58,387 nt of DNA, taken from a virus (Duplodnaviria > Caudoviricetes). Positions within the stretch are counted from its first letter, which is position 1. The number at the start of each line of letters is the position of its first letter. The notes beneath the pieces are model-generated. The model was not told where the DNA came from. It made no database searches and was given only the letters and a program-made list of their open reading frames with translations. Of the stretch, positions 8,904 through 51,600 are shown one piece after another. The stretch lies in IMG/VR virus record IMGVR_UViG_3300008122_000003, positions 1 to 58,387 of that record; one strand, written 5' to 3'. A program made the translations under genes and the position numbers.

Positions 8904-10362
8904 TAAGTGGCGGGCATCCCGCCGCAAAAACATCGAGCGTGTCGAGAGTGACATGCACGTTTACCAGCACACGGCACTGCAGTTCATCCGGGATAACCCG
9001 TTCTGCGCCCTGTTCGTTGACCTGGGCCTCGGCAAGACGGTCACCGCCATGACGGCGGCGGCCGAGTTCTTGATGAACGGCGAGGTCAACAAGGTGCTGA
9101 TCATCGCCCCGCTGAAAGTGGCCAACAAGACCTGGCCGGACGAGTTCAGTGTGTGGGAGCACACCTGCTGCTTGAACTACCAGGTGCTGACAGGAGATGC
9201 CAAGACGCGGGCGCAGGCCATTAAGTCCAAGGCGTCCATCCACATTATCAACCGTGAGAACGTGGAGTGGCTGGTGGACCAGTGGCGCACCAAATGGCCC
9301 TACGACATGGTGATCATCGATGAGAGCTCGGCGTTCAAGGACCACACCACCAAGCGGTTCAAGGCGCTGAAGAACGTCCGCAAATACATGAAGCGCATGG
9401 TTCAACTGACAGCCACGCCGGCGGCGGAGTCCTATCTGCACCTGTTCGCCCAGATCTACCTGCTCGACCAGGGTGAACGCCTCGGCAAGACAGTAACCAG
9501 CTACCGTGAGAAGTATTTCACACAGAACCGCTGGTCGATGAAGTGGGACCTGCGCCCCGGTGCCAAGGAAGAGATCACGTCCAAGATCCAGGACATCTGC
9601 CTTGTCATAAAGGCGGAAGACTACCTGGACATGAAACAGCCGCAACACATCGAAAGTCCGGTCTATCTCTCAGATGCGGAGATGAGCCGCTACAATGCGA
9701 TGGAAGAGGACTTCCTGACAGAGGTCATGCAGGAGGACGGTGAGTCCCTGATCATCGAGGCGAAGACGGCGGCCACACTGGCCAGCAAGCTGCTGCAGAT
9801 GGCGTCCGGGTTCATCTATCACTCGGAGCGAGAGCTGGTGAACGGCAAACCCAAGCTAAACCGAACGGCCCACCCGCTGCACGACCACAAGATGGACGCC
9901 CTGGAGGCCCTGCTGGAGCAGCTGGATGGGGAGAACGTGATGATCGTCTATCACTTCAAGCCGACGCTAGCACGCCTACTGGCCAAGTTCCCCGATGCGG
10001 TCGCCATGGACAAGTCCGGCAATGCCGTGACACCATGGAACAAAGGCAAAATCAAGAAGTTGTTGGTCCACCCGATGTCAGCCGGCCACGGGTTAAACCT
10101 GCAGAAAGGCGGCCGAGTGATGATCTTCTACGACATCCCATGGAGCCTGGAGACCTACCAGCAGGTGATCGGCCGCTTGCACCGTCAGGGGCAGACTAGG
10201 CAGGTGCTGCTTTACCATCTCGTGGCGAAAGGCACGGCCGACGAGAAAGAGGTGGTCCGACTTAAAGAAAAACGAGACACACAAGAGTGGCTGTTCCAGC
10301 GGCTCAAACGCCTCGCCAACAAACGCCGGAAAGAACGAGAAGCGATGGAGGACATGCTGTGA
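8866..10362 (+). CDS. SNF2-family helicase
   Basis: DLGLGKT, IIDES, TATP, GHGLNLQ, Q.IGRLHRQGQ; start could be 8872. Confidence 0.92.
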   Translation: MSMTRNQIWTSFDKWRASRRKNIERVESDMHVYQHTALQFIRDNPFCALFVDLGLGKTVTAMTAAAEFLMNGEVNKVLIIAPLKVANKTWPDEFSVWEHTCCLNYQVLTGDAKTRAQAIKSKASIHIINRENVEWLVDQWRTKWPYDMVIIDESSAFKDHTTKRFKALKNVRKYMKRMVQLTATPAAESYLHLFAQIYLLDQGERLGKTVTSYREKYFTQNRWSMKWDLRPGAKEEITSKIQDICLVIKAEDYLDMKQPQHIESPVYLSDAEMSRYNAMEEDFLTEVMQEDGESLIIEAKTAATLASKLLQMASGFIYHSERELVNGKPKLNRTAHPLHDHKMDALEALLEQLDGENVMIVYHFKPTLARLLAKFPDAVAMDKSGNAVTPWNKGKIKKLLVHPMSAGHGLNLQKGGRVMIFYDIPWSLETYQQVIGRLHRQGQTRQVLLYHLVAKGTADEKEVVRLKEKRDTQEWLFQRLKRLANKRRKEREAMEDML

Positions 10363-50053: not shown

Positions 50054-50424
50054 TTTTCGAACCTCATTATTGCGTGGCCCACCAGTTGGCTGTCGGGCAT
50101 GACAGATACCAAGCGGCCTGATATTTTACGCTGGCCGTTTTTACGGCGATGGTTATCTAGCACTTCGTTTTTCAAGCGGAGTCTCATGTCCAGGTCTGTT
50201 CGGTATTGATATTCTGGGATGCCGCGTTCGCATCGCAAAACATAACACTCTCGGTTAAAGGCCTTGAACTCATCCGGGCTTAGTTTTAGCTCTGGGATGA
50301 AAAACGGCTTGTGGGTATCCTCCAGGGTAGCCAGCTCTTCCTTGAGACCGTCCAGCTCGCCTTGGGTCTTGCGGATGGCGTCGCGCAGCATGTCACGGCG
50401 CATGGTGTACTCTTGATCAGTCAT
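50050..50424 (-). CDS. Hypothetical protein
   Basis: RBS GGAG; ATG 50424 overlaps upstream stop. Confidence 0.6.
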   Translation of the reverse strand: MTDQEYTMRRDMLRDAIRKTQGELDGLKEELATLEDTHKPFFIPELKLSPDEFKAFNRECYVLRCERGIPEYQYRTDLDMRLRLKNEVLDNHRRKNGQRKISGRLVSVMPDSQLVGHAIMRFEK

Positions 50425-50768
50425 TGCTCGCTCCGGTTGCAGGTGATCAGGGAGTAGACCACCACGCGGCCGTCGCCGGTGATCATCTCGCCTGTGGATT
50501 GGTTGTAGCGCAGGCCTGTCTTCTCGGCCGCACGCTTGATGGCGCCGCCCGCTGTGCATTTGAGGTTGTAGCGCACTTTGGACAGCTCGTCCTTCAGGTC
50601 GCACAGGCGGACGGTGCCTTCCAGTTGGCGGGTAATGTAGTGCAGCTCGCCGGGGCTAAGGCCCAGGATGGCCGTCATGTGCTTGCCCGGGCGTCCGCCC
50701 ATCGACGGGGTGACATCCACGTCACTCTCGATGGGGGCCGTCAGGTCATGCAGGTCTTGGTTGGGCAT
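50421..50768 (-). CDS. Hypothetical protein (first gene of leftward early operon)
   Basis: RBS AGGAG downstream of promoter. Confidence 0.7.
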   Translation of the reverse strand: MPNQDLHDLTAPIESDVDVTPSMGGRPGKHMTAILGLSPGELHYITRQLEGTVRLCDLKDELSKVRYNLKCTAGGAIKRAAEKTGLRYNQSTGEMITGDGRVVVYSLITCNRSEQ

Positions 50769-50795
50769 ATTCGTTCTCCTGTTTCGTTGGGAGTA

Positions 50796-50826
50796 AAGGT
50801 ATTGCTTTCCGAACTGTTAGTCAAAC
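50796..50826 (-). promoter_or_regulatory. Early promoter TTGACT-N17-TACCTT with shared core
   Basis: GTTTGACTAACAGTTC on the minus strand. Confidence 0.75.
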
Positions 50827-50850
50827 TGTTTTATTTATTTATTTGAGGGG

Positions 50851-50880
50851 TTGACACGACGGCGGCATGGCGGCAATACT
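50851..50880 (+). promoter_or_regulatory. Rightward promoter TTGACA-N18-AATACT with AT-rich UP-like element
   Basis: Perfect -35; back-to-back with leftward promoter; no RBS-led ORF follows. Confidence 0.6.
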
Positions 50881-50886
50881 TGCCTC

Positions 50887-51280
50887 ATCCAAACAGGATA
50901 TCCCCGACAAGGATAGAAAGGAGAGTGATCCTATCTCAAGCTGGTGGCATTCCAGTAAGCTCGAAGCCATGTCGAACGACAGCGCGACGAGCACACAACT
51001 GAGGTTGCATTGGGCGTGGTGGCGTTACCACTCTAAACAACGCGGCTTTCAAGGCTTCCATGAAGTTGGAGTCCTCGGGCCACTCCGGTGCAACCTCAGT
51101 TGTGGTGAAAGAGCTTTACCGACAGACCCTGTCAGCGGGATGACACAGGGCGCTTGCATCAAGGTGAAAAGGGTAGACGTGGACGTGCCGTGATCCGCAA
51201 CGGTTGGAAACCACGCACAAGGGCCGCCAAACGGCAGAAGATGCCATCGCAACAAGAAAGCCCTCTTACGAGGGCTTTTT
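50887..51280 (+). ncRNA. Putative ~390-nt structured non-coding RNA of unknown family
   Basis: Own promoter and terminator; perfect 16-bp long-range helix 50994-51009/51089-51104; many nested hairpins. Confidence 0.7.
51257..51280. terminator. Bidirectional terminator
   Basis: AAAGCCCTC-TTAC-GAGGGCTTT-TT. Confidence 0.85.
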
Positions 51281-51294
51281 CCTATCCGCAGTTC

Positions 51295-51600
51295 TCACTT
51301 CTTACTCAACGCGCAGTAGGCGATGATCTTCACCGCCAGGCGCTCGGCCAATACCATCTGCTGGGGGTTGAACTGCCCCGACTGCATGATCCCGACCAGG
51401 CCCATCAAGTTGCCCATGGCCTTCAGGTCGGCCATGGCGGACTGCATGATCTGCTGGGGGTTATGCCCTTCCTTGATGATGGACACCGCCCTGTCTCGCA
51501 AACCATCCGCCACGTCGATCGCCGGTCCGTACTGGGTATCAGTCGGCAGGGCTTGCGGCGGCTGCAGGTCGCTTGCTTGCAACTGCATGCTCTGCTCCAT
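51295..51600 (-). CDS. Hypothetical Gln/Met-rich helical protein
   Basis: RBS GAGG; two NPQQ repeats. Confidence 0.65.
   Translation of the reverse strand: MEQSMQLQASDLQPPQALPTDTQYGPAIDVADGLRDRAVSIIKEGHNPQQIMQSAMADLKAMGNLMGLVGIMQSGQFNPQQMVLAERLAVKIIAYCALSKK

Follow-up and report, generated by a model that had tools for sequence, protein, structure and literature searches.

A probable gene for a modular structured non-coding RNA in an Aeromonas phage, with a complement to the 16S rRNA tail and a tRNA-like cassette

The subject of this report is the intergenic stretch from 50851 to 51280 in a viral DNA of 58,387 nucleotides (IMG/VR record IMGVR_UViG_3300008122_000003, here called the window at its full length), which is very probably an independent gene for a stable, structured non-coding RNA belonging to a modular phage family without an Rfam model. 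The window, which has direct terminal repeats, is the complete genome of an Aeromonas phage; its only close relative among isolates is Aeromonas phage phiWae15. The predicted RNA is about 395 nucleotides (nt) long and has no credible open reading frame (ORF). Its parts, including a three-hairpin motif (module B), a long-stemmed tRNA-like cassette (module H) and a 3' multibranch domain, are listed below, with MFE denoting the minimum-free-energy structure.

50851-50880, + strand: sigma-70-type promoter, with -35 TTGACA (50851-50856), an 18-nt spacer and -10 AATACT (50875-50880)
50887-50914, + strand: two 5' hairpins, AUCC-AAACA-GGAU (50887-50899) and AUCC-CCGACAA-GGAU (50900-50914)
50909-51000, + strand: module B, three conserved hairpins; matched by covariance model R1 at 102.5 bits, the sole copy in the window
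50917-50931, + strand: AAAGGAGAGUGAUCC, a Shine-Dalgarno mimic at the P2 loop and its flanks; it is complementary to the 3' tail of 16S rRNA but for one bulged A
50920-50925 with 50930-50936, + strand: P2 of module B
50941-50944 with 50952-50955, + strand: P3 of module B, CUGG/CCAG
50959-50963 with 50988-50992, + strand: P4 of module B, GCUCG/CGAGC, with an inner UGUC/GACA (50970-50973 with 50978-50981)
50994-51105, + strand: module H, a helix of 18-21 base pairs (bp), 50994-51014 with 51084-51104, around a 67-nt interior
51105-51253, + strand: 3' multibranch domain, with MFE helices GGUGAA/UUUACC (51104-51120) and CCCUGU/ACAGGG (51127-51150)
Within the 3' domain, + strand: further MFE helices, GCAUC/GAUGC enclosing CGUGG/CCACG, GCCGU/ACGGU and GCCG/CGGC
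51257-51280, no strand assigned: intrinsic terminator AAAGCCCUC-UUAC-GAGGGCUUU followed by a U-run, read by eye

This + strand unit sits between two - strand genes, 50421-50768 and 51295-51600, both with PHROG matches of unknown function; the flanking genes are structural genes on the strand opposite to the unit. An earlier note on this DNA, made from the letters alone, had singled out a TTGACA promoter here, and it proves to be near consensus (TTGACA-18-AATACT, 10 of 12 positions), the top one of five promoter-like sites between 50000 and 52200, where shuffled sequence gives 0.8 +/- 0.9; phiWae15 carries the same promoter. Transcription is predicted to start near 50887. A - strand promoter-like site, TTGAGA-18-TATCCT (50939-50910, 9/12), lies inside the RNA gene and faces the gene starting at 50768, which must have its promoter somewhere within or beyond the RNA gene.

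The strong terminator described in the same note can be read by eye as the hairpin and U-run at 51257-51280. It was accepted because the weak Rfam matches, six of seven of which align there, fall on terminator-type hairpins of small RNA (sRNA) families, and because phiWae15 keeps the hairpin unchanged, in a region 100% conserved over 30 nt. Being A-rich on its other side, it is probably bidirectional and probably also ends the converging - strand gene 51295-51600. Immediately 5' of it, in the window as in phiWae15, stands AACAAGAAA (51251-51259), three A-R-N triplets; such triplets just before a terminator are the layout of the 3' ends of Hfq-binding sRNAs. The setting recurs in Klebsiella phage VLCpiM12a, whose locus likewise has its own promoter and terminator on the strand opposite to its neighbours, and an opposite-strand gap is found also at the loci of Klebsiella phage RCIP0093, Acinetobacter phage LAPP1, Salmonella phage CF-SP1 and Escherichia phage ZCEC13 (as orientation alone, the promoter scans having covered the window and VLCpiM12a).

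The stretch folds with an MFE of -161.3 kcal/mol, against -129.0 +/- 5.5 in 100 dinucleotide shuffles (z -5.89), none of which is as stable. The perfect 16-bp helix named earlier was placed exactly and reaches 21 bp with G-U pairs, and the other pairings named with it are all present in the MFE structure. The 5' hairpins carry a loop motif, CCCGACAAGG, which Aeromonas and Proteus-type copies have in common on different stems (GUUUCC/GGAAAC). A protein-coding reading was rejected. The ORFs of 108 amino acids (+ strand) and 68 amino acids (- strand) inside the stretch have no PHROG match, and four of the seven flanking - strand ORFs do; homologues differ by indels of 1-2 nt, not multiples of three, and reading frames are not kept. 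The statement that no ORF here is led by a ribosome-binding site thus holds as far as the ORF is concerned, and needs amending in that a strong Shine-Dalgarno-like sequence does exist at 50917-50931, with no properly spaced start codon.

Rfam 15 gives no match anywhere in the window at gathering score, so that the novelty claimed for the RNA stands; at E<=10 there are seven weak matches, all below gathering and six of them on the terminator. Scans of the homologous loci returned tRNAs and sub-threshold STnc100 as their sole matches. At default settings ARAGORN finds no tRNA gene or tmRNA in the window and no tmRNA in seven related loci. Two exact-pattern scans of 185,579 species genomes, which detect near-identical copies only, gave no host copy, and a search of a limited literature collection, supplements not covered, found no description of the module B motif or of an intergenic RNA in Jedunavirus.

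It is module B that ties the gene to a wider family. By BLAST, the 5' part of the RNA is about 90% identical in unannotated gaps of the otherwise unrelated Aeromonas phages ST4, 2_D05, 4_D05 and 4_4512, and pattern scans added IMG/VR and metagenome contigs to the carriers. Ten copies, when aligned, gave a consensus of three hairpins in which 7 of 19 pairs show compensatory changes; the covariance model R1, built from this alignment, found 30 matches among 97 sources and 10 among 50. A weak-scoring group of these (23-27 bits) pointed to Proteus phages and Salmonella P22-like phages; further carriers are Klebsiella and Escherichia Jedunavirus, Salmonella Swiduovirus, Citrobacter, Acinetobacter and Pectobacterium phages and a few E. 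coli prophages. With filters off, R1 matched all eight of the further loci (Proteus, Klebsiella, Acinetobacter, Salmonella, Citrobacter and Escherichia phages or prophage; E 3e-5 to 0.19), and BLAST with the Jedunavirus locus reached 97 phage records. The relatives are thus not the Chi-like phages that had been expected; they come from several Aeromonas phage lineages that are unrelated to each other, and the 5' motif occurs besides in Enterobacterales and Acinetobacter phages.

The helices of module B show both conservation and covariation. Among 28 distinct copies, standard pairs fill 93.5% of 526 cells, whereas sliding the partners by 1-3 columns leaves 36-48%. Double-sided changes occur in 13 of the 19 pairs, and the covariation score of 0.58, against 0.25, is reached by none of 500 shuffles, which bears out the check that the earlier note had proposed. 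P4 differs by subfamily: GCUCG/CGAGC with UGUC/GACA, GACC/GGUU with ACGUA/UACGU, or GACUG/CAGUU with AUGUU/AACAU. The G-U pairs fall on the + strand, the same strand as the embedded tRNA genes.

Two side observations concern loci carrying module B. In Jedunavirus (L152 2404-2496) a long hairpin directly 5' of the module shares 93-97% identity with sequences from 150-kb phages of Klebsiella and Escherichia; in one of these, phiWec190, the sequence is annotated tRNA-Thr. ARAGORN finds no tRNA in L152. Tiny "hypothetical protein" coding sequences overlie the locus in ZCEC13 (L158 393-464 and 609-707) and in Citrobacter phage K1M (L156 478-618 and 604-798), and these calls are probably mistaken.

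The first hairpin of module B bears GGAGGUGAUCC or a close variant of it, with 11-15 nt complementary to the 3' tail of 16S rRNA. In the window, the duplex with the tail (-21.4 kcal/mol) is stronger than at any other site on the two strands of the 58-kb genome, and all 27 full-length copies have a duplex of -16.3 to -26.7 kcal/mol (two of 29 rows were left out, one cut by a contig end and one a second match with E=0.39). Opening the mimic costs 6.2 kcal/mol in the window, for a net -14.0 kcal/mol; since unfolding costs 6-9.5 kcal/mol across copies, net binding of the 16S tail is still favourable by computation. The mimic is kept where its partner within the hairpin differs (Aeromonas versus Klebsiella types) and where P3 and P4 sequences diverge between subfamilies. 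It lies 30-45 nt from the predicted RNA start in the window and hundreds of nt from the 5' end in longer arrays. Measured as a ribosome-binding site, the window copy has the complementarity and lacks a start codon opening a conserved frame at the suitable distance of about 5-10 nt. An internal pseudoknot partner for GGUGAUCC was also sought and rejected, there being no complement of the mimic in any member and isolated 6-mers in 2 of 14.

Module H is built on a core helix of CACAACTGAGGTTGCA (50994-51009) with TGCAACCTCAGTTGTG (51089-51104). In the window its interior comprises a D-arm-like GUGG/CCAC hairpin (51017-51031) with GG in the loop, a CUUC/GAAG hairpin (51055-51065) and GGAGU/ACUCC (51067-51086) at the position of a T-arm. 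There is no anticodon arm and, by regular expression, no T-loop consensus, and relaxed ARAGORN calls no tRNA here. The helix runs about 12 pairs past the acceptor-like part, with AACC afterwards instead of NCCA; this extension by roughly 12 conserved bp leaves the acceptor helix without free ends or a CCA in place.

The tRNA character of the cassette is plainer in relatives, of which 24 distinct examples of the hairpin class were collected. The stem is nearly invariant (CACAACUGAGGUUGCAUUG with CAGUGCAACCCCAGUUGUG) and 18-22 bp long in 17 of the 24, the greedy count stopping at two adjacent mismatches in the other seven; L031, L059 and the Avpx2 type have compensatory variants of the stem. Almost every phage has an interior of its own, 32-131 nt in length. 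In 9/24 the 3' arm is adjoined, as in tRNA, by a canonical T-arm (UUCRANN loop on a 5-bp stem), and relaxed ARAGORN calls a tRNA on the RNA strand in four of 21 hairpins, namely tRNA-Lys(UUU) in ST4, tRNA-Met(CAU) in L141, which shares the ST4 scaffold, tRNA-Gly in 4_L372X and an unusual tRNA in L144; a fifth call is on the opposite strand. On the strength of the T-arms, the ARAGORN calls and the invariant stem, we read H as a cassette formed by a tRNA or tRNA-like element, with a conserved leader/trailer duplex prolonging its acceptor helix. That the RNA "does not look like tRNA", as first described, therefore remains correct for the window, where there is no tRNA or tmRNA match, and misses that the 16-bp helix is the conserved extension of what is a tRNA-like cassette in relatives.

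Comparison of L002 (1596-1699) with L141 (- strand, 998-1101) shows an identical helix, D-arm and T-arm with anticodon arms UUU and CAU, respectively; it looks as if the anticodon stem-loop alone had been swapped. The window's own H interior is about 90% identical in a Kunmingvirus-like array (L145), with the loop rewritten and the stem intact, and one metagenome contig has the same stem arms around a different interior of 84 nt.

The 3' domain has no homologue in IMG/VR, and INPHARED gives terminator matches only. Outside the window it is found in metagenome contigs only, at 90-96% identity over 51088-51281, from four RNA-library runs and at least three studies. Among the variants, U>C at 51132 together with A>G at 51145 keeps the predicted pair, and U>C at 51204 turns G51187-U into G-C. 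The RNA-library contigs also hold variants of the RNA's 5' part; such contigs show neither strand, ends nor level, gaps in their coverage carry no meaning, and no expression is claimed from them. Read by eye, GUUGUGGUG (51099-51107) could possibly pair with CAUCGCAAC (51245-51253) as a closing helix, which would compete with the base of H.

Modules have been exchanged in mosaic fashion. An all-against-all comparison of 14 regions reveals shared modules in varying order and number, in arrays that span 0.17 to >1 kb, lie upstream of terminase genes and often end in true tRNA genes (ST4, L011, 4_L372X, Avpx2 and 62AhydR11PP). The natural variants run from module B alone in phiWae15, through B, H and the 3' domain in the window, to the arrays of >1 kb in ST4-like phages. 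Compared with phiWae15, which is without 254 nt of the window stretch, the window has H and the 3' domain as an insert placed precisely at the junction of CACAAC with AAGAAAG, the insert ending in CGCAAC; both phiWae15 and 4_D05 keep module B without any H. In an ST4-like phage of 91 kb (L013 4600-5639 and L011 1-1143) a non-coding array of >1.2 kb, with tRNA genes after it, has an STnc100-like head and also contains module B, a module C inside a hairpin, and three or more long hairpins whose bases are of the ACAAC/GUUGU type.

The Rfam null, together with helices that are conserved and covary in relatives, supports the proposal of the earlier note that this is a functional non-coding phage RNA of an undescribed class. 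Two of its modules suggest a connection with the translation apparatus: one complements the 16S tail, the other has the shape of a tRNA. Taken as a whole, a modular non-coding RNA gene acting on the translation apparatus appears to us a reasonably probable explanation of the locus. The RNA would be made early, by host RNA polymerase from the consensus promoter, and would act in trans; module B might dock on free 30S subunits through Shine-Dalgarno/anti-Shine-Dalgarno pairing, and the tRNA-shaped cassette might ride along as payload or decoy. The docking step, suggested by the Shine-Dalgarno mimic, is put forward tentatively. A fuller version is more speculative again: in phages of many Gram-negative hosts the RNA would be an RNA-only ribosome effector, B clamping the free 16S 3' tail with 11-15 bp and the swappable tRNA-shaped cassettes helping to form a pseudo-initiation complex or decoy on 30S that redirects or protects translation during infection.

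Several points weigh against this account. The terminator scan called two sites, both elsewhere, and missed the hairpin at 51257-51280. Pairing is favoured in the module B alignment (A3) because it was fitted to the structure of the model, although the differing P4 stems of the subfamilies are not, from their sequences, something such fitting could create. The 16S tail used was that of E. coli rrsH rather than of Aeromonas; a chance site inside a coding region, AAGAGGUGGUCC at 10239-10260, reaches -20.3 kcal/mol with it. The mimic sequence is partly self-complementary, and its complementarity to 16S could be a by-product of hairpin P2, or could mark a genuine ribosome-binding site. Sixteen of 28 aligned copies, none of the window's type, have a UUG 9-10 nt past GGAGG that opens a mini-ORF. 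The window's own H interior is not recognisable as tRNA. Finally, the RNA-library contigs also cover the promoter and upstream sequence (50779-50886), ahead of the predicted start, and may therefore derive from DNA or from - strand RNA.

Of the other explanations, the one that survives best makes the RNA a precursor of tRNA-shaped decoys, cut at the leader/trailer helix by enzymes of the RNase III or RNase P type. The tRNA-like cassettes set free would titrate host enzymes that attack tRNA or work on it, for example the anticodon nucleases of defence systems or enzymes of tRNA modification and processing, and B would be a stabiliser only. Phage tRNAs act as counter-defence. The interiors of H, which range from near-canonical tRNA to degenerate and differ in every phage around a nearly invariant stem, would suit such a role, as would the single scaffold with two anticodon arms in ST4 and L141 and the true tRNA genes that adjoin the arrays. 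However, no nuclease, processing site or processed end was seen; the window interior, having neither anticodon arm nor T-loop, is a poor tRNA mimic; and the proposal explains neither the invariant 16S complement in B nor the phages (phiWae15 and 4_D05) with B and no H. We consider it unlikely.

Quite improbable, in our estimation, is an action in cis, in which the promoter would oppose the - strand operon (by interference, or through RNA antisense to the 5' untranslated region of gene 50421-50768) or the bidirectional terminator would act as an insulator, the RNA itself being secondary. The orientation of the unit opposite to both neighbours, which recurs in the Jedunavirus, Swiduovirus and LAPP1 loci, fits this idea, as does the promoter-like site on the - strand within the unit. 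Yet sequence and structure are kept, with compensatory changes, in phages that have unrelated flanking genes, and the module is co-oriented with its neighbours in Kunmingvirus-like phages, P22-like phages and one E. coli prophage. Nor is there extended complementarity to the rest of the genome: in a short-word BLAST of the RNA against the window the best match outside the gene is 14 nt (E 0.07), which is at chance level, and a role as antisense regulator of the phage's own genome was rejected.

Little credence is given to a leader or small-peptide unit, in which the Shine-Dalgarno-like sequence would be the real ribosome-binding site of the mini-ORF and the structure would regulate that ORF or a downstream gene. 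Besides the UUG at 9-10 nt, it has in its favour that the mini-ORF reads MLTGKP in all Enterobacterales-type copies, with an identical MLTGKP-stop in the Proteus, Klebsiella, Salmonella, Citrobacter, Acinetobacter-phage and E. coli-prophage copies. But the window's type (12 of 28 copies) has UCUCAAG after GGAGG, with no ATG, GTG or TTG in range; in-frame options differ among close relatives through indels of 1-2 nt; the mini-ORF shows no synonymous variation and fits constraint on the RNA as well as on a peptide; and the ORFs of the stretch lack PHROG matches. The sequence in question, UCUUGCUGACGGGUAAGCCGUAAGU, which could encode MLTGKP-stop, is identical in all Enterobacterales-type and Acinetobacter-phage copies (L151 2513-2603, L152 2490-2582 and L153-L158).

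A sponge for CsrA was also considered and rejected: the P1 loop resembles the core of CsrA SELEX ligands, but GGA lies in a stem and there is one fitting site only.

Even less probable than the small-peptide unit is a Y-RNA-like tether of the YrlA type, or a template of reverse transcription as in retrons or arrays of the UG27 type. YrlA consists of a long terminal helix and a tRNA-like module, to which the present RNA bears some resemblance; in YrlA, though, the tRNA-like part is joined through the anticodon stem, and in H through the acceptor end. The window has no Rfam match to a Y RNA or YrlA. UG27 arrays are made of phage non-coding RNA units of diverse sequence that are gained and lost, and are described as needing a reverse transcriptase and two adjacent accessory proteins (10.64898/2026.09.22.753630). 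The present family, too, consists of modular phage arrays of structured units. The UG27 motif AUCN7UANAG, however, is absent from the RNA gene and has two matches elsewhere in the window, where 2.6 are expected by chance. What brings the likelihood so low is that neither the TROVE/Ro60 domain (PF05731) nor the RVT_1 reverse transcriptase (PF00078) occurs in any of five carrier phage genomes, control genomes being positive for both. Slightest of all is the chance of an integron attC or MITE-like DNA element, since the ACAAC...GUUGU helix ends misfit the attC R-box consensus and an RNA is favoured by the G-U pairs and the co-orientation with tRNA genes.

To return to the modular RNA gene, module B is unannotated, or overwritten by tiny "hypothetical protein" calls, in about 100 deposited phage genomes, including those of Klebsiella Jedunavirus, so that annotation would gain immediately from a model of the motif. 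Klebsiella Jedunavirus phages are under study for phage therapy.

Several known RNA systems invite comparison. The H cassettes of relatives stack acceptor-like helices on canonical T-arms, with D-arm-like hairpins and sometimes anticodon arms, as in tRNA; the window's H departs from tRNA in having no cloverleaf (no anticodon arm or T-loop) and no free end with CCA. Likeness to tmRNA is not borne out in the window by either ARAGORN or Rfam. The mRNA stabilisers of the STAB-SD type, in the literature on Bacillus cryIIIA, are reportedly Shine-Dalgarno elements without a gene. The present RNA similarly has a strong complement of the 16S tail near its 5' end, far from any start codon in use; unlike them, its mimic sits in a conserved multi-hairpin motif of a non-coding RNA, and in phages of Gram-negative hosts.

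STnc100 and PasD are related prophage-borne sRNAs of the phage late region (10.64898/2026.05.13.724894, PMC12370729). Sub-threshold matches to STnc100 (RF02076) head the ST4-type arrays (39.1 and 37.5 bits, gathering 47), and another (24.1 bits) lies directly before module B in Salmonella phage CF-SP1. The window's 3' domain begins with GUGGUGAA, similar to UGGUGAAU of the STnc100 consensus. In contrast, the window has no STnc100 match at E<=10, the relatives all score below gathering, and B and H lie outside the STnc100 model.

A further parallel is with GOLLD and ROOL, large ornate RNAs described as phage- or prophage-encoded and of unknown function, often near tRNA islands and sometimes with embedded tRNAs (PMC12286853). 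According to the same source, GOLLD has been reported to pull down ribosomes (PMC12286853). Neither the window RNA nor its relatives match either family in Rfam, and the window RNA is smaller (about 0.4 kb) and built of exchangeable cassettes rather than one conserved fold. Its relatives form structured arrays of 0.6-1.2 kb that adjoin or contain tRNAs, which recalls GOLLD and ROOL; the window itself has no tRNA gene. Phage RNAs of the GOLLD and ROOL type beside tRNA islands are a long-standing puzzle, of which the present family offers a small, modular and sequence-explicit case, with a testable partner for module B in the 16S rRNA tail and a module H that is visibly derived from tRNA.

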